This document shows, one piece after another, positions 1 through 11,537 of a DNA stretch of 64,000 bases. How positions within the stretch are numbered: the stretch's first letter is position 1; the number at the start of each line of letters is the position of its first letter. This DNA is from an uncultured Acidobacteriota bacterium (GTDB taxonomy: Bacteria; Acidobacteriota; UBA6911): positions 1 to 64,000 of the forward strand of contig CAWHCF010000029.1 in the NCBI GenBank assembly GCA_963827655.1, read 5' to 3'. Made by a program: the position numbers and the translations under genes. Below the pieces are notes generated by a model. That model worked only from the letters and a program-made list of their open reading frames with translations. It was not told the origin of the DNA and did no database searches.

Positions 1-3000
1 CGCTCTTACGCTTACCTTGGGAACCTGCCGCTTTCGAAACAGTCCGCGCAAAGTGGGTTGTCTTCGATGAAAGAGGTATTCGAACTCTCTTGAAAAGGGA
101 AATATTCAGGCGGGATTACTTCTAGTGTTGGCTCTCTGCGCAATGATTGAATCATGCCCGGAAAAGGGCCTCAAGCTTCGTAACCAAGCCCTGAGGGGTC
201 GGGAGCGAGAAGAAAACGGCATTCTCGCTGGCCACGTACAGGTCATGACTTCGGCTCTCCGCTGGCTAGGCGGCGATCCTGCGGGGGGTGTAGTGGCAAG
301 TACTACAGCGATACAGATCCTAAATCGTGTCAGGCAGCACATTTACTGTCAGTAGCCTATTCACATCTAGGTATTTGCCTTTATGCCCTCGGGCCGCTGG
401 TCTGGCATTCGAGAAACATATGCGCGCCGCGATGATAAGTGAGCAAACCCGATTCGTTTCCAGCGGGCCCAAGCTTTGTCGAATTTAGCCGATGTCTCTG
501 CCGCTCGGGTCGATTTAAAGACGCACTTGAAATAGCCGAGAAGGCAATAAAGCTGGCTAGCGAGACTGAAAATAGAGACTGGGTCCACGTCTGTACAGGC
601 ACCGTAATTGGTATTTACATAAGCGTCGGTCACTATTCGAAGGCTCATCAAGCTTTGTCTGATCTAGCCTCGGCTGCCAGCCAGTTCTTTCCAAGGTACG
701 CAAAGATTCAGGCCCATTTCTGTGCCGCTTGGCTTAGCCTCGAACTGGGTGATTGGAAGGCCGCTAGCCAGGAGTTGGATAGGTTAGAGCGAACCAGATC
801 TCTAAGGTACCACCTTATGAATCTGAAATGGGTGAGGTCCTAAAGCTGAATTTGCTATCAGAGCGGAAGAACTCGAATCAGCCTCCAAAAACTGAGACAT
901 TTGTATTCCAAGCTAGTCAAGAAACGTCGGCCGTTTCAAATGTGTGTAGTGAAGCTACTTCTTGCCGAGGTACTTCTAGCGGAGGGCCAATTGGAATGTG
1001 GTCGGAAGTGTGCTCGAGATGGGCTTCGGCTTGCGAGGGTTTTGCCATCTGTCAATCTTCAAGCACAGGCACACTTGATTATGGGGAGATTTCACTTTCT
1101 AGCCGTAAGCGAGATCTTGAGTGCCACTGGAGTTCCTGAGGAGAGCGTGAAACGAGATGCTGTATCTGGAATAGCTCAAGCTCGCACTGAGTTAGAGGTA
1201 GCGCACGCATTGGCTCAGGAGGCCGACGCCGAAGAGATCCTGTGGCGGGTTGATGTTGAATTTGCCAGAGTTGCAGATTTGGATAGAAGCGCCGAAAGCT
1301 GTGTACTTCATGTAGAAAGGCACTGGATCGTCTCCCTTCAATCGAAGCTCGAGTTCCCATGAAGATGTTAGAAGTGTTTCGGCAGCTTCCAGAGCGTGAC
1401 AAAGGTCGTAGGGATTGTGAAGAGTTCATCCGTAAATATGAGGCAACCGACAAGAGTACAGAGACGTTGCAGATTGGTATGATAGGGGAAGATCATCTCC
1501 GGATCCTGTGCCGCGTTAGTCACGTCCTAAATGGGATCCGTGAATTGGATCGCCTTCTCGAAGCGCAATTATCGATCTGATTCAAGGAATCCACATTGAA
1601 AGGGCAATGGTATTTCTAAAAGATGATGACACTGGAAGGCTTGGACTGGTCAAAGCTCGAAACACTAAAGGCGAGTCCCTAGATCGAGCGGACCACATCA
1701 GTCAGAGTATTTTGAATGAGGCACATAAGCGTGGAAATCCTTTTTTAAGTGCGAATGTAATGACGGATCCGCGCGTCCGTGCTAGGAGTCGTGCTTCCGG
1801 TCAATCGGGCACACTTTTGTGCTCCTTCTTTGAAAGCGCGAGGAAGGACACTTGGGGTGCTCTATGCAGATCATCCGGATGCTGTAGGTTCTTTGAATGA
1901 GTCTGTAATTAACCTTTTCGCGGCGTCTGTAATCTGGCAGCCCTGGCAATAGATAATGCGTTGGTACATCGGGGCTTGAGCGAGGAAAATGCGGAACTTG
2001 AGTCGTCATCTTCGTCAGGCTCGTGAAGGATACACGGAGATTATCGGTAAGAGTGCTGCGATCGAAGACTACGGGAACGCATCGCACGGGCGGCTTGGTC
2101 TCCCCTGGATATCCTCATACAGGAGAAAGCGGTACTGGCAAGGAGCTAGTAGCTCTGGCGCTGCACAGGACAGGCCGTAGATCAGGGGGAAAGATTGTAC
2201 CCTTGGATTGTGGCTCTCTCTCTGAAAGTTTGATCGAAAGCGAGCTCTTTGGATACCGCAAAGGAGCGTTTACGGGCGCAATCGATAACCGTCCTGGGCT
2301 TCTGGAAATCGCGAACGGTGGCGTGGTCTTTTTGGATGAGATCTCCAACCTCTCGACTAAGCTGCAAGCAAGCTACTAAGAGCGCTGCAGGAGCGAGAAA
2401 TTCGTCGGTTAGGTGAAGCCCGTACCCGCAAGGTCGACATCCAAGTCATCGCAGCCACTAACCAAGACCTAAGGGAGGCTGTAAGGCACGGTAGATTTCG
2501 AAAAGATCTCTATTACAGGCTCAATCCTCTAGAGATTCGTGTGCCTCCAATCCGTGAACGCATGGAAGATATTCCTGTTCTGGTTCATTGGTTCCTGAAG
2601 AAAACTGCAGAGGCTGAGGATGGCAAGTGAAGTCATTCTCCGAAAGAGGCTTTTGAACTTCTGAAAGAATATAAGTTTCCAGGCAATGTTCGTCAGCTCA
2701 AGAATATGGTGCAGGGCGCGTATTATCTTTCTCCCGGTAAGATCATCGGGCTTGGTCAGCTTCCTCTAGAAATTCGTGGCGGTGTTAGCAACAGGAATTC
2801 AACTCATGGCGTCGCAATGAGCAGTCATCAGCTATATCAGCAAGATTTAAAAGGGAGGGGAACCTTCAAGGACTTGGTTAAGGAGCCGTTCCTACGACGG
2901 CAGCTTCCTTCCAGCATGGTCAGGCGAATTATTCACCGTGCTCTGACGAGACGCGGGGAAAGTATCGGGATGCGTTTCGAATCCTCGGAATCAGCGATCA

Positions 3001-3118
3001 GGAATATTCTGTTACGCTGGTCTTTCTTAAGCGACATGGGTGCTACCTAAACTTTCGCCGCTACCGGCGTACACACGGAGTGCGCGAGACAAATCCACGT
3101 CTTGATGGCATTGGCTGA
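1..3118 (+). pseudogene. Sigma-54-dependent enhancer-binding protein (TPR-like helical region + GAF + AAA+ + C-terminal domain), 5'-truncated by the window edge and split by many frameshifts
   Basis: Consecutive + strand ORF pieces: TPR-like helices (439-1362), GAF-like segment (~1480-1970), Walker A GESGTGKE, GAFTGA loop and Walker B VFLDEI (2023-2379), then LLRALQEREIRRLG, LYYRLN and FPGNVRQL in shifted frames; last frame ends at TGA 3116-3118. The frameshifts may be sequencing errors. Confidence 0.85.
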
Positions 3119-3128
3119 AGGGAATTTC

Positions 3129-5574
3129 TCAGTAGCGAGGCGGAAACTCAAGGATATTCCTGACCGTATCGTCGAGGCCAGTCTTTTCCTTAGCTAGGTC
3201 ATCTTGCTCTACGATCACCTTCTGGGCAGACTCCAGTAGAGCAAAAACTGTGGATCCGTCTTCAGGGTAAGACGCCACGCCAATCCGACACGTCACCACA
3301 ACGTTGAACCCTGGAATAGTGCCAATAATTGCGTCGCGGATCTGTTTATTCCAACGCTCGCAATAACGTGCTGCCATCTCCCTACGGGCCCCAGCCATCA
3401 GGGCAACAAACCCCTCATAACCGGACCTTACCAAGATATCTGTTTCTCTGAGTTCCTTTTTCAAAATCTCAGCTATCTCACGTAAGATAGCGTCGCTAGA
3501 GTGAATTCCGTACAATCTAAGAATTTGGGGAGATTTCGCACCTCTACGCAGAGAAGTGACAGAGGCGACCTGTTCCTAGCCGCGAAATCCATCATATGGG
3601 AACCCGCTACTGAAAGATATGTGATCCGGTGTGTTTGAGTTACGGGATCGACTATGTTTTCATGTTCCTCGGATGAGATGGTGCTGCGTTTGAGCGCCTC
3701 CGCTATGCAAGGCGACACTTGGTCAGCGAGCAATTGCAACAGGCTGAGATTTGCCTGGGAGTAGAAGACCGGCGCCTGCGCATAGAGGGATACTGTACCA
3801 AGGCAGTTTCCATCAAAGATCAAAGGTACAACCAGAGTGTCGGTCAGCGAAGTGAAATCACCTTCGACCTCCTGAAACTCCAAGGCCGGTCCTGTATTCA
3901 TAATCGGCCGGCGGTACGCAGCAACCCAGCCGCTGATTCCCTTACCCAGCCCGATACTCAGATTCTGTAGCACATCAGAGAATTTTCCGAGGACATGCGC
4001 AGCCTTTAGCGTTCCTTCTCCATTATCCAGAAAGAAAATGCACGTACTGAATGGAAGAAGCCGCTGGAGTCGGCGACCTAAGATAGGCAGGATATCCGAA
4101 AGTTCGAGATGCTTTCCGAGACTGTTGCAGAACTCGTAAAGAGCCACGAGTTCCGCTGATACTGCTGTTGGAAGAGTGGGAAGGGTAGCAGGAGAGTTGG
4201 CGGAGGAAAGGGCGCGATCGACCTTCTCAAAATAGTCTCGAAACGAGAGTTGGGGGATATTCTTCACAGCCTCTTCTGCTAGCACTTCTAATTCGTCGAT
4301 GTGTTGAACAAACAATTCTACAAGCTCAGGATCGTAGATAGCTTCCCGACTGGCTTCTGAGCAACTCAACAGAATCTTCCATGCTGAAGGGTAGCTTGTA
4401 TGGTCGAGTTGATCGAATCGCGTCAAAGGCGTCTGCAATGGAGAGTATGCGGGCCCCAAGGGGAATCTCAAGTCCTTTAAGCCCATCCGGGTAACCCGTT
4501 CCATCCCATCTCTCGTGATGAGAGCGTACGTATTTTGCCACAGGGAATGGAAACTGGATTTGCTGGAGGATCTCATGACCCGCGGGAGCATGCATCTTCA
4601 TTTTTTCGAACTCTTGCTTGCTCAAGCGGTCCAGGCTTGTTCAGGATGTAGTCATCGATTGCCAACTTTCCAATATCGTGAAGAAGAGACCCGGTTTCAA
4701 TGGCCATCAACTCCTTGGTATCAGTGACTCCACAAACCTTAGCCAAGCCCAAGGCGTATGCTCTGACTCGCCTAATGTGGCCGTAGGTAGTTTGGTCTTT
4801 TGCGTCGACCGCAAGGGCGAGGGATTCGACCGTCCTTAGATACAATTGCTCCTGCTCCTTGAGATGCTTCTCAGCTTCAATAGCTTTAGCTCGGTTTACT
4901 TTGTTAATGCCCCAAACAGCGCCAACGAACGGAGCCATCAGTAGAGGAGCGTACTCGTGGAACGCGCGAAAGAGCAAAAGGAAGGCTCCTGCACACGACG
5001 AGACCAAGAAATCGAGAAAGAGAAGGCGGTAGTTGTTATACCAAACTTGAAAGATTGTTCCTCCAAGTGAAAGTGAGATGGCAGTGGCAACAAGCAACGA
5101 ATTTGACAAGAAAAACGTTAGCGCTAAGCCAAAGGTCGGAAGCAATACGTCTTCTAGATGGTATGAGCCTGAAGGATTCAGCTTATAATACACAAGTCCA
5201 TACAGCCACACGTTAAGAGTTGCAGTGGCGATGTTAAACACGATGCGATGAACGGCTGTTTGGAGGTTTTTCTTCAGCAGCAGTGTCAGGAACGCCATGA
5301 AAAACGTATTAGCCACTATTGCTGGTGGAGTTCCATACATCATGCAGATGCTGATTACAAAAGCATCCCCGATCGTAACCAATGACCTGACGCTTGGAAG
5401 AAAAACAAAGACCGGAACGGTTACCAGCGTAATCCCTGCAAGGACTAACCAGTCATTGCCATAGCTTCCCCTAACGACGTCGACCAATGCCCGCAGGAAT
5501 AATGGAGTGGCGAGCACTACGACTGTGGAAATATAGATCCGGGCTTTTAGCGGAAGAGACCTCCAAGTAGTCAT
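3129..5574 (-). CDS. Membrane-anchored HD-GYP phosphodiesterase with GAF and degenerate GGDEF domains (frameshifted at ~4615, ~4330, ~3510)
   Basis: N-terminal multi-TM region (4573-5574), DAKD..TYGHIRRV, LLHDIGK, HHERWDGTGYPDGL (4326-4625), GAF (GKGISGWVAAYRRP), C-terminal GGDEF-like domain with RSGYEGF in place of RxGGDEF. Confidence 0.85.
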
Positions 5575-5618
5575 ATGTCGCCTGAAACCTCGAATCTGAG
5601 TCTTGCACTAATAGTCAT
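5571..5618 (-). CDS. 15-aa ORF MTISARLRFEVSGDI whose stop overlaps the HD-GYP start (ATGA), or the true N-terminus of that gene separated by a frameshift
   Basis: AAGGAGAAAC immediately precedes ATG at 5618; TGA overlaps ATG at 5574. Confidence 0.4.
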   Translation of the reverse strand: MTISARLRFEVSGDI

Positions 5619-5651
5619 GTTTCTCCTTGCCGGCTATTACTCTTTTACTAA

Positions 5652-5700
5652 CTACCACACTATACCCGAGCGTCGGGGATTTCAATTTCAGAGCGTTCAT
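5652..5700 (-). pseudogene. Degenerate copy of the 19-aa peptide gene (MN..EIEIPDAR..GIVW*)
   Basis: Same CGGAGAAACA-ATG context as the 5795 copy; GAA ATT GAA ATC and GGT ATA GTG TGG TAG are present but in different frames. Confidence 0.55.
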
Positions 5701-5735
5701 TGTTTCTCCGTGATGGTTGAGTTGCCCATTTCGCC

Positions 5736-5795
5736 TTAGTACCAGACTATGGACGGGCTTTCGCGAGTTTCAAGAATTTCGATTTCAGCATTCAT
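5736..5795 (-). CDS. Micropeptide MNAEIEILETRESPSIVWY (19 aa)
   Basis: Translated by hand; RBS GGAGAG upstream; differs from sister copies mainly by synonymous or conservative changes. Confidence 0.8.
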   Translation of the reverse strand: MNAEIEILETRESPSIVWY

Positions 5796-5835
5796 TGTTT
5801 CTCTCCGTTAAATTGACTCGTTAAGGATTCGGTTT

Positions 5836-5895
5836 CTAGTACCAGACTATCGTTGGCGTTTCGCGGGTTTCGAGGATTTCGATTTCGGTCTGCAT
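5836..5895 (-). CDS. Micropeptide MQTEIEILETRETPTIVWY (19 aa; possible upstream start at 5910 adding MEKKE)
   Basis: Translated by hand; GGAG RBS upstream; paralog of 5736-5795. Confidence 0.8.
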   Translation of the reverse strand: MQTEIEILETRETPTIVWY

Positions 5896-5964
5896 CTCTT
5901 TTTTCTCCATCTTTCGTCAGTTTTTGCGTCTTGTTGTTTTCCTTCACCTTGAATCATCACTCCG

Positions 5965-5997
5965 TCACAACCAAAGAATCGCGCTGGGATTCGACAT
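5965..5997 (-). CDS. Micropeptide MSNPSAILWL (10 aa)
   Basis: Strong RBS AAAGGAGG 4 nt upstream of ATG; C-terminal AILWL parallels TIVWY. Confidence 0.7.
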   Translation of the reverse strand: MSNPSAILWL

Positions 5998-6085
5998 GAT
6001 GCCTCCTTTCCAGATTGAGGTTGATTCGATAAGCTCCACGGACCAAGTTTCTCTCCGTTAAATTGACTCGTTAAGGATTCGGTTT

Positions 6086-6145
6086 CTAGTACCAGACTAT
6101 CGTTGGCGTTTCGCGGGTTTCGAGGATTTCGATTTCGGTATGCAT
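6086..6145 (-). CDS. Micropeptide MHTEIEILETRETPTIVWY (19 aa)
   Basis: Duplicate-unit copy of 5836-5895 with Q>H. Confidence 0.8.
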   Translation of the reverse strand: MHTEIEILETRETPTIVWY

Positions 6146-6214
6146 CTCTTTTTTCTCCATGTTTCGTCAGTTTTTACGTCTTGTTGTTTTCCTTCACCTT
6201 GAATCATCACTCCG

Positions 6215-6247
6215 TCACAACCAAAGAATCGCGCTGGGATTCGACAT
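6215..6247 (-). CDS. Micropeptide MSNPSAILWL (10 aa), second copy
   Basis: Identical to 5965-5997 with the same AAAGGAGG RBS. Confidence 0.7.
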   Translation of the reverse strand: MSNPSAILWL

Positions 6248-6325
6248 GATGCCTCCTTTCCAGATTGAGGTTGATTCGATAAGCTCCACGGACCAACTCC
6301 CTCGCGTGAGCCGCCCGAAATCGCA

Positions 6326-6358
6326 TTAAAGCCAAAGAATTGCACCTAGGTTTCTCAT
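6326..6358 (-). CDS. Micropeptide MRNLGAILWL (10 aa)
   Basis: RBS AAAGGAGAG upstream; lies outside the duplication yet keeps AILWL through different codons (GCA ATT CTT TGG CTT TAA vs GCG ATT CTT TGG TTG TGA). Confidence 0.7.
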   Translation of the reverse strand: MRNLGAILWL

Positions 6359-6755
6359 GAGTTCTCTCCTTTCAATGAGTTCTACCCTCAATTGCTTTCG
6401 TCCTGCCGGCCAAGCCTGTCCGGACTCCTCCGCGCAAAGGTACACCACTACCACCTCGGCTTGAGCAAACTTCCCAACCTAAGTTCTACTTTGTTACGAG
6501 AGTTGAGCCTTGCAGCCTCGGCGGCGCTCGTCCGCAGATCGAAGGTCATTAGTGCCAACCAACCGAGAACACCTGGCCGGTCGCCAGAAGGCAGTGGGGG
6601 AAGCTATACAAGAAGTGCTGATAAAGCACGGGTGCTACGCCTCCGGCTCTTGAGCTGTCTGGTTCGCGCTAGCAAAAAAACTGTTGAGCTCGGGTCTGGC
6701 CGTTAAGGTAACCCTTTGCCCGATAATACTTTCTTCATCAACCGCTAAAAATAGA

Positions 6756-6784
6756 AAAATACATTGGCGCCTGGTTACTGTCAA
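6756..6784 (-). promoter_or_regulatory. Candidate sigma70 promoter for the peptide array
   Basis: TTGACA-N17-TATTTT on the minus strand, in an AT-rich intergenic stretch. Confidence 0.4.
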
Positions 6785-6842
6785 ACTTAATCTAATGCCT
6801 TCTTAGAGTTCCATGGCTCGGTCGTGGGATTAGACGGGCGGG

Positions 6843-9230
6843 CTAGGGCAAATACTCCCAGAATTCCGTCCTGAGCCAACGGACCAGTCGGCGCGTAAGA
6901 AGATACGCAATCGTCCTTTTGCCGCAGCGAATTTTCCCCACTCCGGTCATTCCGCCCTTTAGTTTTCCGTCCTGGTTGGCCAGCTCGCTCTTGATCAGCA
7001 CCTTCCGTTCCGTTCCGCTCTCTACAGCCACAGGCGCGATGGTCGTTACACGAGACTCAAAAGAATCGCTCGGAAACCCGCGAACTTTCAGCGTGATCGG
7101 ATACCCAATCTGGACATCCGCAATTTCCTTCTCCGGAATCGGCATGTCGATCACAACCACTCCAAGATTCACTATTTCACAGAACGCGTCTCCTTTCTCG
7201 ATGTAGTCGCCGAGCTTGTTTTTCAGGTACGGCGTGGTGACGACACCCTCAATCGGGCTTCGCAACTTCAGGAGTTCGAGCTGCCGGCCCAGGATGCTCA
7301 GCTTCTCCTCAAGTTTTTTCACATCGGCTGCAGCCGCTTCGATCGATTCCTTGCGTGTCCCGGCCTTCAGAAGGTTGAGCTCGCTCTGGCTGGCTTCTAA
7401 CTCCTTCCGCTTGATCTGCAAGGTGCGGTCAGTATTCTCCTTCAGTACCTGCAACTCCCTCTGAGACTCCGAGAGCTCCTTCGTGCGGACCTCGTACAAC
7501 GTGCTGTCGCGGTCCAGATCGTTCCTTGAGATCAACTCGCCGTCAAATAGTTTCTGACTGCGCTCGTAAGTCTCTTTGGCATTCCGGAGCTCGGCTTCCT
7601 TCTTCGCTATCCGTTCTTGAAGCAGCTTTTCCACCTCTTCGACCCGCGCCGCATTAACGAGTTCCGTCTCCTTCGTATCGATGTTTCTTCTGGCTCGGTC
7701 CAATTCCTCGGGCCGAGCTCCGGCATTTAACAGTTTTAGAACTGCTCTTTTCGATGCGAGCTCCCCCTTGGTTTCTTCGAAGTCATCCACAAGTTGGAGA
7801 TTCTCGATCACCGCCAGAACGTCGCCGCGGTGCACTGGACTTCCTTCATCAACATTTATCTCCTTCAGGGTACCGTCGACCTGCGCGCCAATCACCAGCT
7901 GATCCTGGGAACGAATGGTGAAATCACCAGGAATTTTGAGTTCCCAGGGAAGAAAACTCCCTCCTCCGGCAATCGCCAGTATCAGGAGGAATCGCGGGGC
8001 TTTCCCTAGTCGTGCCGCTAGCGCACCCAGGAACCGTCCCTGTGCCCTGAAGGTCTCTCGACTCGCGGTTTGAACCGAGATCACGCCTACGGCCGAAATA
8101 AGAAGGATCCCCCACATCTGATAATTCTCGATCAACCACCCTCCTATACGACTGATCATCACCGCAAGGAGACCTGCCGAAAAAACGAACGAAGCGATGC
8201 CGTATCTCCAGTAAATCCTCTTTTCCCGTCCGGTCGGCTCCGGCCCGACTGACGGTTCCGTTATCGCCAACAGCCATCGTTTCAATGTGCGCTTCAGGAA
8301 ACTAAACGCTCTCGGCCTCAGATTCGGAACTTCGAGGTAATCGCTCAGGAAGTAATAACCATCGAGCCGGATTAGAGGATTAAAGTTGAACAGCGTCTGA
8401 ATGCCGGAAAAGGCAATCACGGCGAGGCATACCCGGCCGGGAAATGTCTCCGGTGACACAAGTCTCCACGCAACAACTGCTAGCGACCAGATAAAGAGCT
8501 GAACAAATCCTCCGGCAAAAGTGACCCAAAGTCGCTCCCTCTTTCTCAAAAGCCACGCATCACTCACGTTACAATAGAAGGCAGGCATGAAATAGAGCAG
8601 CAGGAACCCCATTTCATCAACCCTGCCGCCAAAATGCTTCAAGGTAAGACCGTGAGCAAACTCATGAACCGTGAGCACGGCAAAAGCACAGACCATGACA
8701 AGCGGAAGAGAGCGCAACTCCAGCAAGCTTCCGACCGATAGCACCAGAGATTCCCAGTTGAGGATCGAGATACACACGGCAACGATTATCGAGATGGAAA
8801 CGAGGGTGACGAAAGAGCCACTGAAGCAAAATCGCAATTTGCGCTCGAGTCTTGTGAGCAAGGCATCCGGGTTGACGGCCCGAATCTTGATCGAGAGAAT
8901 GCTGCCTAGAAATCCGCTTCTCTTTCTCCCAAAACTCTCCAATCTTGACCAGGCCGCCGGCTCATCCAGAAGGAGCAGCTTGCGCAGCTTGTCCACGAAG
9001 TCCTGGACTTGTGCGGCAGTGACGTCGGTTTTCTCTTCCTCTGAAACGCCCTTTGCGAGAGAGACAGAATCTTGTTTTCCGTCGAGCCGGCGCAATACCG
9101 CCGCCTGGATAGGCGCAAAGCGATAGAATTGGCGAAGGATTGGATCTTTAACGATAAGGGGAGAACCCGGTTCCGAGGACTCCGCACGAATCTCCAGATC
9201 CGACCGCAGCTTTGGAAAAGCCCGCTCCAT
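6843..9230 (-). CDS. PqqD/RRE-like domain + M50 (site-2) zinc metalloprotease + HlyD-type membrane-fusion protein fusion
   Basis: GGAGG RBS before ATG 9230; N-terminal KDP..FYRF..VLRRLDGK..FVDKLRKLLLL; HEFAH zinc motif; NFNPLIRLDGY; TM helices; lipoyl-like halves (VDEGSPVHRGDVL; LRSPIEGVV) flanking a long coiled coil. Confidence 0.85.
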   Translation of the reverse strand: MERAFPKLRSDLEIRAESSEPGSPLIVKDPILRQFYRFAPIQAAVLRRLDGKQDSVSLAKGVSEEEKTDVTAAQVQDFVDKLRKLLLLDEPAAWSRLESFGRKRSGFLGSILSIKIRAVNPDALLTRLERKLRFCFSGSFVTLVSISIIVAVCISILNWESLVLSVGSLLELRSLPLVMVCAFAVLTVHEFAHGLTLKHFGGRVDEMGFLLLYFMPAFYCNVSDAWLLRKRERLWVTFAGGFVQLFIWSLAVVAWRLVSPETFPGRVCLAVIAFSGIQTLFNFNPLIRLDGYYFLSDYLEVPNLRPRAFSFLKRTLKRWLLAITEPSVGPEPTGREKRIYWRYGIASFVFSAGLLAVMISRIGGWLIENYQMWGILLISAVGVISVQTASRETFRAQGRFLGALAARLGKAPRFLLILAIAGGGSFLPWELKIPGDFTIRSQDQLVIGAQVDGTLKEINVDEGSPVHRGDVLAVIENLQLVDDFEETKGELASKRAVLKLLNAGARPEELDRARRNIDTKETELVNAARVEEVEKLLQERIAKKEAELRNAKETYERSQKLFDGELISRNDLDRDSTLYEVRTKELSESQRELQVLKENTDRTLQIKRKELEASQSELNLLKAGTRKESIEAAAADVKKLEEKLSILGRQLELLKLRSPIEGVVTTPYLKNKLGDYIEKGDAFCEIVNLGVVVIDMPIPEKEIADVQIGYPITLKVRGFPSDSFESRVTTIAPVAVESGTERKVLIKSELANQDGKLKGGMTGVGKIRCGKRTIAYLLTRRLVRWLRTEFWEYLP

Positions 9231-9442
9231 CCCAGGCCTCCATTGCGGGGGAAACTTACGACCCGGCGGGAATAGAGTTTTGAACGATGGAATGATATCG
9301 ACAGCCTCATAGAATTGCAATAGCGAGAGTTAGCGCAATAATCGCCACCAGCGGAGTTTCTTCAATTGACGGAGTTTTCAGCCCTCGCTATAATCGCCTG
9401 TCCAAATCGTAACGTGGAGCTAAGCGCAAGAACTCAAAGGAG

Positions 9443-10277
9443 ATGGGCATGTTTTCAAAAAAGGCTTTTGCACTTCCGCTGATCGCAATGTTGCTTGGCC
9501 TGTCCGCTTGCAGCAAGAAAGCAGAGGATGCGCCGGCGCCTGATTCGGCCCCAGCTGCCTCAAAGCCCGTCTTCAAACCCGGAGAAATGGTTTTGATTCC
9601 CGCCGGCGAGTTCATTTTCGGCGCAAATGACAAGGATGCGCCGGCCGTGGGCCCGGAGCAGAAAATCACGCTGCCCGCTTACTGGATCGACAAATACGAA
9701 GTTACCAACGGCGAGTATCTGGATTTCTCCATCAAGGGCGGCTATGCGAGTGAAGGCAAGAATTGGCGACTTTTCTTCACGCCCCAAAAGGTCAACTACC
9801 CGGTTGTGAATATCACCTGGAACGATTGTCTTGAGTATTGCAAATGGGCGGGAAAGAGGCTTGCCACAGAAGAAGAGTGGGAAAAAGCGGCTCGCGGTTC
9901 CGATGGGAAACGTTATCCGTGGGGAGACAAGTGGGAAGGGGGTCGCAGCAACACTTTCGAAGCCGGCGCTACGCGCGCCCGCCGAGGTAAATCAGTTTGA
10001 TGACGTCAGTCAATACGGGGTGCATGATCTGTTGGGTAACGTCCAGGAATGGACTGGAAGTTGGTATAAGGCCTACAAGGGAAACACCAAACCCAATCCC
10101 GACTTTGGCGAAAAGTATCGTGTCCTGCGGGGTTTGTCTTCAAATTTTTATGGCAGCCGAGGACATGTCTGGGACCGGTCGGCCTATCTGCCCAAGGCTC
10201 TTTATGGCTACGGCTGTCGCTGCGCGAAAGATGCTACCGCGGAAGAAGCCGCGAAAGCAGGCAGATCGGGTAGCTGA
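9443..10277 (+). CDS. Formylglycine-generating enzyme (SUMF1/FGE-sulfatase) family lipoprotein, one frameshift near 9970
   Basis: Lipobox LSAC; IDKYEVTN, PVVNITW, RLATEEEWEKAARG, YGVHDLLGNVQEW, GCRCAKD. Confidence 0.85.
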
Positions 10278-10358
10278 AAGATCCTCCGGCTTGCCGGTCA
10301 GTATCCGCGATGACAAGATTCCGCCGAGAATTTCGCATTGTCCATTTCGACGCGTGCC

Positions 10359-11537
10359 CTATAGAACGCGCGCTATGAAGCACTTCAGGTAATGAGTTTC
10401 AGGCATCGCGGCCAGGACGGGATGATCGAACGCCTGTGACCGGCGTTCAAGGACCTGAATATAACGATGGGCGTCACGCGCGGCTTCGCGGATCACTTCG
10501 AGAAAGGCGTCCTCGCTCAAATGGTATGAACAGCTCGAGGTGACCAGAATTCCCTCCGGATTGAGCAGCTTCATCGCCCGCAGATTGATTTCCTTGTAGC
10601 CTCCGATTGCGCCGGGAAGCGCGCCACGATTCTTGGCGAACGCCGGCGGATCAAGGCAGACGGCACCGAACTTTTCTCCACTTCGATCCAGCTCCTTCAG
10701 TATGTCGAAGGCATTTCCTTCTCGGAATTCGATATTGTCGATCTTGTTTAGTTCCGCATTTCGCCGCCCCTGTTCCAACGAATCGCGCGCCAGGTCCACG
10801 GCCAGGATCGATTCACAATGCGCAGCAAAATGGAGCGCAAAGGCGCCGGTGTTGGTGAACATGTCCAGCGCTCTTCCCGAAACGTAGCCCCGCGCCGCTA
10901 GTCGATTCTCACTCTGATCCAGAAAGAAGCCCGTCTTCTGGCCGGCGTTGAGGTCGACAATAAAAGAGATGCCATTCTCCTCGATCTGGACGTTATCCGG
11001 CACTGTTCCGAACAAGATTCCACGTTTCTCTTCCAGACCTTCGAGTCGACGGGCTTTGACATCGTTACGTTCCAGAATGCCACAAGGTTCAATCAACTCC
11101 CGCAAGATGTCGACCAGGAGCGTCTTGAGATTTTCCGACCCCCTCGAGAGCGTCTGGAGAACGAGGAAATCTCCATAACGATCGACGATGATCGAAGGGA
11201 GCAGATCGGCTTCAGCAAAGACCAGGCGACACGCCCTGCCTGCCTTCAACAACGGAATCCGACGGTTGATCGAGTCCTTGAGTCGGTCGCGCAATAGAGC
11301 CAGACCGGGTGGTTCCGAGCCTCGGCTGAAAAGGCGCAGCCGTATCTGAGAGAGCGGGCTATGAAAGGCATGCCCGAGAATATTGTGTGCGGCATCCGTG
11401 ACTCTTACAAACGTCGCCTCCGGTCGCTCCACATCGCGCGTTACGTCTCCCGCATAAACCCAGAGATGCCCCTGGCGCAACCGCCGCACGCCTGCGGGTG
11501 AGATCTCAACCTCCTGACCTGTGTCAAACGGATTCAC
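10359..11537 (-). CDS. rlmI: 23S rRNA m5C1962 methyltransferase RlmI-like (PUA + SAM-dependent MTase)
   Basis: GHLWVY, EADLLPSIIVDRY, GQKTGFFLDQ, LDPPAFAK, DHPV...PETHYLK. Confidence 0.8.
   Translation of the reverse strand: MNPFDTGQEVEISPAGVRRLRQGHLWVYAGDVTRDVERPEATFVRVTDAAHNILGHAFHSPLSQIRLRLFSRGSEPPGLALLRDRLKDSINRRIPLLKAGRACRLVFAEADLLPSIIVDRYGDFLVLQTLSRGSENLKTLLVDILRELIEPCGILERNDVKARRLEGLEEKRGILFGTVPDNVQIEENGISFIVDLNAGQKTGFFLDQSENRLAARGYVSGRALDMFTNTGAFALHFAAHCESILAVDLARDSLEQGRRNAELNKIDNIEFREGNAFDILKELDRSGEKFGAVCLDPPAFAKNRGALPGAIGGYKEINLRAMKLLNPEGILVTSSCSYHLSEDAFLEVIREAARDAHRYIQVLERRSQAFDHPVLAAMPETHYLKCFIARVL

Follow-up and report, generated by a model that had tools for sequence, protein, structure and literature searches.

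What is the role of genes so short that the entire product is eight or ten amino acids long? The question is raised by the window analysed here, a stretch of 64,000 nt from an uncultured Acidobacteriota bacterium (assembly GCA_963827655.1, contig CAWHCF010000029.1, positions 1 to 64,000 of the forward strand). It contains a compact array of open reading frames (ORFs) of two classes: a short class whose leaderless products end in AILWL, and a long class in which a related core follows a conserved leader. The array lies between the gene of a protease fused to an HlyD adaptor and that of a membrane sensor with an HD-GYP domain. Comparative analysis of the sequences indicates that the short ORFs are genuine translated genes under purifying selection at the level of the peptide, and the cassette as a whole looks like a new kind of peptide signalling. 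To our knowledge genes of 8-10 codons escape every gene caller, and here they are among the best-conserved features of the locus.

Organization of the peptide array

All the features of the array are on the minus strand, and their translations were re-checked. The three short ORFs, with their strong ribosome-binding sites, are present as a preliminary description of this DNA had claimed. S1 (6326..6358) encodes MRNLGAILWL and ends in TAA, with the Shine-Dalgarno (SD) sequence AAAGGAGAG located 5 nt before its ATG. S2 (6215..6247) encodes MSNPSAILWL and ends in TGA, with AAAGGAGG placed 4 nt before the ATG, and S2′ (5965..5997) is an identical copy of S2 with the same SD sequence at the same distance. 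The copy derives from a tandem duplication of 250 nt, the units of which (5797-6046 and 6047-6296) are 99% identical and contain one short and one long ORF each. Read 5′ to 3′ on the minus strand, the 825-codon gene of the protease fusion (9320-6843) is followed by a 485-nt spacer and then by S1, S2, L1, S2′, L1′, L2, a decayed copy of the long class and the gene of the membrane protein, which begins at 5574.

Because both copies of MSNPSAILWL lie within one tandem duplication they count as a single observation, and the sole informative comparison within the window is that of MRNLGAILWL with MSNPSAILWL. Between them there are three synonymous codon changes, three replacements and a different stop codon, and no alignment of the flanks is possible. 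The earlier statement that the core is kept through different codons and stops while the flanks diverge is borne out for this pair, but not for the two duplicated copies. Similarly, the interleaving of short with long ORFs that had been described is real in the window, but it was made by the duplication and is not a general feature, the usual order being the short ORF or ORFs and then the long ones. When all six frames of the 8.18-Mb assembly are searched for the loose motif [ASTGP]I[LVI]W[LYFW]-stop, 8 occurrences are found, 6 of them in about 750 nt of the window (5736-6478).

Selection on the short peptides

What distinguishes such ORFs from chance? Codon usage was compared over 37 unique short ORFs, of which 18 have 8 codons and 19 have 10; no other length occurs. 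There is no replacement at I, L or W in any of them. The isoleucine is encoded by ATT in 31, ATC in 5 and ATA in 1, the first leucine by CTT in 18, CTC in 14 and CTG in 5, and tryptophan is fixed. The last leucine uses five codons and is once replaced by phenylalanine, and the stop codons are evenly spread (TAA 12, TGA 12, TAG 13). An SD-like site (AGGAGG, AGGAG, GGAGG, AAGGA or GAGG) is found 4-11 nt before the ATG in all but one of the 37, at 4-8 nt in 34 cases, and both start codon and length are kept over at least 8 genera. In an alignment of 22 loci the SD, the ATG and the codons are conserved, and conservation ends abruptly at the stop codon. Thus selection acts on the peptide and not on the DNA or RNA, since I, L and W are invariant, codons and stops vary, and conservation extends only to the stop. 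With SD, ATG and length maintained, and with synonymous changes at the conserved residues, the short ORFs behave as translated genes.

The ORFs, both kinds of short ORF included, are also covered by RNA-library contigs from runs X16-X19, four soil metatranscriptome libraries of three studies. These are scattered pieces of 113-376 nt with 90-99% identity, whose depth cannot rank genes and whose uncovered parts are uninformative. All 8 of the indels listed between 6086 and 6358 are in spacers (4 further indels over the whole stretch are outside that list). Within long ORFs 4 substitutions are listed, and T15S is the only one of them that is not synonymous.

A core common to the two classes

The long ORF L1 (6086..6145) encodes MHTEIEILETRETPTIVWY, a leader MxTEIEILETRETP followed by the core TIVWY. 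L1′ (5836..5895), encoding MQTEIEILETRETPTIVWY, is its duplicate with one replacement, and L2 (5736..5795), encoding MNAEIEILETRESPSIVWY, is an older, diverged copy belonging to repeat family D2 (80-81% identity). A fourth copy (5650..5700) has decayed; pairwise alignment with L2 reveals a 2-nt insertion after codon 3, an internal deletion, and IVW-stop in another frame. The long products had been described as 24 residues long. They are in fact of 19 residues (M[HQ]TEIEILETRETPTIVWY, with starts at 6145 and 5895), and the orthologues all begin MQTEIEILE with an SD of their own. Across loci there are 1-5 long precursors per cassette, of 19-23 residues, with a leader MQTEIEILExRE[TN]P and a tryptophan-containing core that varies between genera. 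The long class thus has the conserved leader and variable core of a peptide made by ribosomes and then modified post-translationally (RiPP), and the short class has no leader. The segment EIEILE of the leader is alternating and strand-like, conserved in the long class and absent from the short.

The two classes have in common a C-terminal core x-[IV]-[ILV]-W-x, so that the short peptide resembles the last 8 residues of the long one. The earlier proposal that AILWL and [ST]IVWY represent one core motif is strengthened by the long-class cores of other genera, where SVLWL, CILWA and AIIWT bridge TIVWY and AILWL. The likeness extends upstream, with x-P-[GS]-AILWL in the short class paralleling E-[TN]-P-x-[IV][ILV]W-x in the long, and in a single locus MSHPGAILWL is found beside ...RENPSVLWL.

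Distribution of the cassette

How widespread is this arrangement? We searched an order sample of 51 genomes, representing a single family, and a phylum sample of 401 genomes, all of them metagenome-assembled genomes (MAGs). Many MAG contigs end inside or beside the peptide array, and copy numbers are therefore lower bounds. Contigs that end at or in the array are G007:C5, G047:C200, G045:C236, G011:C53, G021:C71, G003:C15, G042:C520 and G065:C106; the near-identical tandem ORFs probably break short-read assemblies.

An ORF of 8 or 10 codons ending in [AG]ILW[LF] is present in 37 of the 51 order genomes, and solely at this locus. As exact DNA patterns, the 10-codon ORF gives 22 matches in 13 of the 51 genomes, all at this locus, and the 8-codon ORF gives 26 matches in 25; the reversed controls give none in either case. 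Every listed match falls at one place per genome and, where the DNA was fetched, between the same two flanking genes. Over the 401 phylum genomes the 10-codon pattern is found only in the genome of the window (G000) and in G005, both of the window's family, and the 394 phylum genomes outside that family have no match, nor has the control. The 10-codon class, M-x3-[GSK]-[AV]-ILWL, occurs in 7 of the order's 11 genera, and the 8-codon class (MAS[AG]ILWL, MANGILWL and similar) in the largest genus.

Loci in other genera were reached via orthologues of the downstream membrane protein. Presence at homologous loci had been named beforehand as one of the points on which the short ORFs should be judged, and they are found at 14 of the 15 loci that retain both flanking genes, with long ORFs at all 15. 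The remaining locus, in G001, is intact, with one long ORF in a spacer of 426 nt and no short ORF. A DNA scan of 185,579 species genomes for TEIEILExR[ED] gave 44 loci, of which 27 (on 26 contigs) are in Acidobacteriota MAGs. A short ORF is found in 25 of these 27, and in the other two (L035 and L066) a contig end truncates the locus. Other phyla account for 17 loci, which were rejected as chance matches inside genes, without such ORFs. Under strict patterns 28 of the 51 order genomes have both classes, 9 the short only, 3 the long only, and 11 neither. Six of the 9 short-only genomes have long ORFs of the MQTDIEILE type and three are cut by contig ends; among the 3 long-only genomes, two have the locus at a contig end and the third is G001.

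Each cassette contains 1-3 leaderless peptides, many loci having two copies and the window three. Exceptions to the usual order are L079 (long-short-long), L082 (long-short), and L089/L052 and L026/L034, where an extra short ORF follows the long ones. In an exact look-up against a collection of 15 billion proteins, the two 24-residue versions of the long ORF and the 825-residue protein were absent. Judged by these scans, the cassette is confined to one order-level lineage of uncultured Acidobacteriota.

The protease-HlyD fusion

The gene upstream of the array (6843..9320, minus strand) encodes 825 amino acids from a TTG at 9320, the true start being likely Met31 at 9230. Its C-terminal half is an HlyD adaptor (Pfam HlyD_D23, E 3.7e-23). 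The N-terminal half is nearest to RiPP maturation metalloproteases, scoring 217.4 bits with NCBIfam daptide_HExxH (NF041824) and 55 bits with YydH/LiaK; the former score is below the curated cut-off of 300 for a daptide maturation protease. PqqD is the only Pfam match on the N-terminal domain (E 0.0096-0.021), and this and Peptidase_M50 (E 0.0043) are below their cut-offs.

Residues 31-460 were modelled with AlphaFold2 from 122 homologues, at a pLDDT of 92.7. The N-terminal domain of the model has a β3-α3 arrangement, with three strands and three helices at residues 13-84. Comparison of the model with known structures using Foldseek gave no match at E ≤ 0.001. Among the weaker matches are the site-2 protease 3b4r (3b4r_A; probability 1.00, E 0.0072, target-normalised TM 0.46) and SpoIVFB 8vjl (8vjl_A; probability 0.99, E 0.016, TM 0.33). 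Three more fall on the N-terminal domain of three strands and three helices, each with a probability of 1.00: the leader-bound lasso B1 proteins 5v1u_B (E 0.11, TM 0.71) and 6jx3_B (E 0.13, TM 0.69), and PqqD 5sxy (E 0.070, TM 0.58). The motifs HExxH and N..P....DG are retained in the 122 homologues, with H189, E190, H193, P285 and D290 invariant and N282, N284 and G291 nearly so. On the basis of the fold matches and the PqqD and HlyD hits, the modelled protein is a RiPP recognition element (RRE) of PqqD fold joined to a site-2-type HExxH intramembrane metalloprotease and a periplasmic HlyD adaptor. The preliminary description had suggested that one class might be exported and processed and the other a cytoplasmic or antagonist form; the model provides a structural basis for the contrast of a processed with an unprocessed form, in the RRE on the site-2-type protease and in the confinement of the leader to the long class.

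The family of such fusions is large, comprising 11,257 cluster representatives at E ≤ 0.001, and distant protease-HlyD paralogues occur in 56 of 301 phylum genomes at E ≤ 1e-20. At 24 fetched loci of such paralogues from other Acidobacteriota families (L103-L126) there are no ORFs of the AILWL or EIEILE type and no such receptor. The tallies of receptor orthologues and protease paralogues include the unpublished genomes G034, G089 and G211, L122 (from G089) being among the 24 distant loci, and no positive claim rests on these. Beside two distant paralogues there are mutually similar Lys-rich ORFs of 42-44 residues (L119:34-168 and L121:721-849, both plus strand; MATKKHAKPIRKAKKLGNVKALTL... and MAKKTVRKQKGLRKKAGKKIRSAKTL...), which may be substrates of those proteins. 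The genome of the window has a second, distant protease-HlyD paralogue on another contig (G000:C38:16857-19007), and in G002 (L014:5307-8254) the protease-HlyD gene is interrupted by about 3 kb.

The receptor candidate and its neighbours

Downstream of the array is the gene of a candidate receptor (3129..5574, minus strand), with a MASE9-like sensor of seven transmembrane (7-TM) segments, followed by HD-GYP, GAF and a degenerate GGDEF domain. It is split into three frames here and intact in the orthologues, which have 796-823 amino acids. All 17 orthologues match HD_5 at E 1e-38, and LLHDIGK and HHExxDGxGYPDGL are invariant among them; in the window both motifs are present but split by frame breaks. 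By these motifs the HD-GYP phosphodiesterase domain for cyclic di-GMP (c-di-GMP) is intact in the orthologues. The GGDEF domain lacks the active motif, having RYGxQGF in the consensus and RSGYEGF in the window.

In contigs from two other runs one base is missing at 4343, precisely where the frame of the receptor gene breaks, and this break is probably an assembly error. The receptor gene, the FGE-sulfatase-like gene (9443-10392, plus strand) and the gene of a TPR-GAF sigma-54 activator (439-3050, plus strand) are all in several frames here and intact in relatives, which points to assembly indel errors rather than pseudogenes. A 15-codon ORF, MTISARLRFEVSGDI, with an AAGGAG site lies at 5571-5618 on the minus strand, and its TGA overlaps the receptor ATG (ATGA); the overlap could couple the translation of the two. 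No ORF of this kind was seen in the other loci listed with both flanking genes.

The conserved block comprises the RlmI-like, FGE-sulfatase-like, protease-HlyD, receptor and sigma-54 activator genes, with no enzyme of post-translational modification such as a RiPP cluster would have. The FGE-sulfatase-family gene, transcribed divergently from the protease-HlyD gene at most of the family's loci, encodes the sole nearby enzyme that could modify a peptide, and its product is a possible candidate modifier. Some long cores contain cysteine, yet the housekeeping RlmI gene is equally syntenic. Five loci of distant receptor homologues (L028-L032, 31-36% identity) have neither the peptides nor the protease. 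Since neither protein, in its distant homologues, is accompanied by the peptides or by the other, a functional link can be argued; as far as the sampled genomes tell, protease, peptides and receptor travel together only in this lineage.

RNA structure and spacers

Is there also a conserved RNA structure? In most orthologous loci the stretch from the protease-HlyD gene to the first short ORF contains a conserved hairpin element, and a diverged copy is found in the window at 6500..6617 (minus strand). It has the layout TTCTCGAATA-GCUCUCUCACCUUGA-variable stem-CUCCCAAUCUGAGCAAGAGC, the stem being of 7-17 bp with quite different sequences; examples are L055:3113-3272, L020:5950-6109 and L093:3579-3738. 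Folded one by one, 24 unique elements of relatives have a mean z of -3.6, with 23 of them below -2, and the peptide strand is the better-folding strand in 15. The copy in the window folds poorly (z -0.31). The 13-mer box of the element is present in 42 of the 51 order genomes, mostly once in each, and at this locus wherever the DNA was fetched. The element may be a leader or processing structure, or a small RNA.

A short ORF is usually separated from the next long ATG by 45-69 nt. A consensus structure of this spacer over 22 sequences has -1.1 kcal/mol, effectively none, and the mean spacer z is -0.50. In eight 8-codon loci (L024, L025, L027, L033, L040, L046, L048 and L055) a hairpin of differing sequence is found 1-5 nt after the stop, with no U tail, and spacers after 8-codon ORFs have z of -0.7 to -2.7. 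Such a hairpin could give stability to a short transcript, or the ribosome could open it on termination. An Rfam scan of 5000-7200 at E ≤ 1 gave no match, and neither this nor the spacer alignment gave any sign of an overlapping RNA or antisense constraint on the conserved codons. A search of 15 intergenic regions for sigma-54 promoters found no consistent site, and a sigma-70-like site at 6784-6756 was rejected as no better than shuffled sequences.

A possible mechanism

The observed genes, their order and conservation, the selection on the peptides and the domain folds lead us to infer a scheme of processing, export and sensing that also gives the short class a role. In our preferred explanation, to which we give slightly better than even chances, the long peptides are leader-guided, cleaved and exported signals, and the short peptides are ready-made paralogues of the core acting on the same membrane sensor. 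With its conserved strand-like leader and genus-variable core the long class looks like an RRE-guided substrate. The RRE would capture the leader, the site-2-type protease would make its cut close to the junction RE[TN]P, and the hydrophobic core would be passed outward by the HlyD part. The MASE9-like domain would sense the core inside the membrane and so change the hydrolysis of c-di-GMP by the HD-GYP domain. The short peptides would be core paralogues that have lost the leader and are made ready-cut. The RRE route would be closed to them; they would partition into the membrane and, as a second ligand common to the whole lineage, act on the sensor that reads the long cores or on the protease, either as agonists or as antagonists.

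A number of points tell against this explanation. A near-invariant short peptide beside variable long cores is unlike a simple pair of ligands matched to one receptor, and in G001, on the sequence of its intact locus, the short ORF is dispensable. The assignment of the transmembrane domain to MASE9 (PF20972) is weak: the model is matched by only 5 of the 17 orthologues at E ≤ 0.1, with a best value of 4.5e-5, L021 scores 22.5 bits against a cut-off of 24.3, and the window's own fragment has no match. The conserved block contains no modification enzyme, ABC transporter or outer-membrane partner, and export via the protease-HlyD fusion is putative. The order of the genes, housekeeping neighbours included, is conserved throughout the family, and because the whole neighbourhood is syntenic, adjacency is weak evidence of a functional link. 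The hairpins after the stop of the 8-codon group would also fit a regulatory role. The RNA-library contigs are no proof of transcription, DNA carry-over being possible.

Alternative explanations

Could the short ORF instead be a regulatory upstream ORF, in which the nascent AILWL or the ribosome at the stop controls downstream transcription, RNA stability or translation, as in the erm, cat and tnaC leaders, with the product having no role of its own? Such ORFs are likewise very short, and a conserved length of 8 or 10 codons with a conserved C-terminus is what arrest peptides have. Moreover the short ORFs are mostly 5′ of the long ones, 45-69 nt from the next ATG, many 8-codon loci have the hairpin 1-5 nt after the stop (spacer z to -2.7), and the structured element further upstream suggests control at the level of RNA. 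Yet neither the fixed position nor the overlapping RNA structure of an attenuation or arrest leader is found, though the hairpins of the 8-codon loci leave some doubt. The position varies, with the short ORF after the sole long ORF in L082, between long ORFs in L079, and repeated after them in L089/L052 and L026/L034. There are multiple copies, two in many loci and three in the window, the spacer is not conserved (-1.1 kcal/mol over the 22 sequences, mean z -0.50), and the post-stop hairpins have no U tail. The likeness of the C-terminus to the long core would also be left unexplained, and we consider a regulatory ORF, though the main alternative, unlikely. The opposite extreme, that the short ORFs are functionless, 5′-truncated relics of long-class genes, accords with their appearance as truncated long-class genes, the 10-codon class retaining x-P-[GS] before the core, with the clearly decayed long-class copy in the window, and with the loss of the short ORF in G001. 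Relics, however, would not be expected to keep start codon and length over at least 8 genera, an SD in 36 of 37 and I-L-W in all 37, with free synonymous variation and all three stops in use; we give this almost no credence.

Antimicrobial or membrane-active peptides are a further alternative, both classes being products of a bacteriocin-like protease-HlyD export cassette with which the HD-GYP protein is merely syntenic. The protease half is nearest to RiPP maturation proteases (daptide_HExxH 217 bits, YydH/LiaK 55 bits), bacteriocin and RiPP loci typically hold several precursor copies in tandem, and the family-wide synteny makes the adjacency of the receptor weak evidence. But the conserved block has no immunity gene, modification enzyme or ABC transporter, and an unmodified antimicrobial of only 5-10 residues, as predicted here, would be very small. 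The three parts, moreover, travel together only here, distant protease-HlyD paralogues lacking both peptides and receptor, and distant receptor homologues (31-36% identity) lacking peptides and protease. An antimicrobial function seems to us distinctly improbable.

Returning to leader-guided signals with ready-made short paralogues, a bolder version can be put forward, tentatively and with less than even chances. The array would then encode a peptide language of two channels, with a c-di-GMP enzyme as its reader. The variable peptides would serve as genus-specific private signals and xAILWL as a lineage-wide public signal or built-in antagonist, both binding the MASE9-type sensor in the membrane and setting how active the HD-GYP domain is. 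Should this prove true, it would rank as the first circuit of peptide quorum sensing described in Acidobacteriota, supply the first ligand for a MASE9-type domain, and tie c-di-GMP turnover directly to ribosomal peptides. With the cassette, an orphan class of membrane sensors found on c-di-GMP enzymes gains a candidate ligand that can be tested, and cell-cell signalling gains a first point of access in Acidobacteriota, a soil phylum that is dominant yet poorly represented in culture. A worked example of a substrate would inform thousands of unannotated RRE/protease/HlyD loci.

Relationship to known systems

Systems that combine small ribosomal peptides with a protease-exporter and a sensor are already known as a kind. 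A literature search for the cassette and for the motifs AILWL, TEIEILE, ASAILWL and GAILWL found nothing, and we found no description of the leaderless paralogues, of an RRE/protease/HlyD fusion as a processing machine, or of an HD-GYP enzyme as candidate receptor. We know of no described arrangement in which a leaderless paralogue lies beside leader-bearing precursors. For the receptor itself the architecture MASE9-HD-GYP-GAF-GGDEF has been described by Galperin and Chou (bioRxiv 10.1101/2021.11.05.467447), who suggest that a ligand is bound within the membrane, the accessible portion of that work naming no ligand. Our candidate has the same domain order as those proteins, but differs in that the MASE9 model is reached by only 5 of 17 orthologues at E ≤ 0.1, and in its associated peptides, which receive no mention in that portion of the paper. 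With the RRE-dependent RiPP pathways (lasso B1, PqqD/PqqA, daptide and YydF proteases) the cassette shares the RRE fold, which matches leader-bound TbiB1 and related structures, the conserved leader with variable core, and the membrane HExxH protease. Here, in contrast, there is no modifying enzyme, the RRE is fused to protease and HlyD, a leaderless paralogue is part of the same array, and the daptide score is 217 against 300.

That an ORF of 7-10 codons with a strong SD can be a true gene, with the peptide as its functional product, is known from microcin C, whose precursor MccA is encoded by 7 codons and adenylated by MccB to give a Trojan-horse antibiotic. An MccB-like gene was not seen in the conserved block, which was compared only via five neighbour proteins, no dedicated search being made. 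The regulatory leader peptides ErmCL, CatA86L, CmlAL and TnaC are also very short translated ORFs, and their sequence is conserved owing to the action of the nascent chain within the ribosome. They have a fixed place before the regulated gene and overlapping alternative RNA structures, in contrast to the variable position and copy number of the present ORFs, for which no conserved spacer structure was found.

Further parallels are Gram-positive. In the enterococcal sex pheromones and their plasmid-encoded inhibitors, and in the streptococcal SHP/Rgg and ComS/XIP systems, a tiny precursor carries its activity in the hydrophobic 5-8 residues at its C-terminus, processing is by the M50/site-2-type membrane protease Eep, and agonist and antagonist classes of peptide can compete for one receptor. 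The receptors are cytoplasmic RRNPP proteins, with export by PptAB and import by Opp. The present cassette resembles these systems in its tiny hydrophobic C-terminal core, its site-2-type protease and its two related classes of peptide. In contrast to them it has a 7-TM HD-GYP enzyme as candidate receptor and a protease joined to an RRE and HlyD, and one of its two classes is leaderless.

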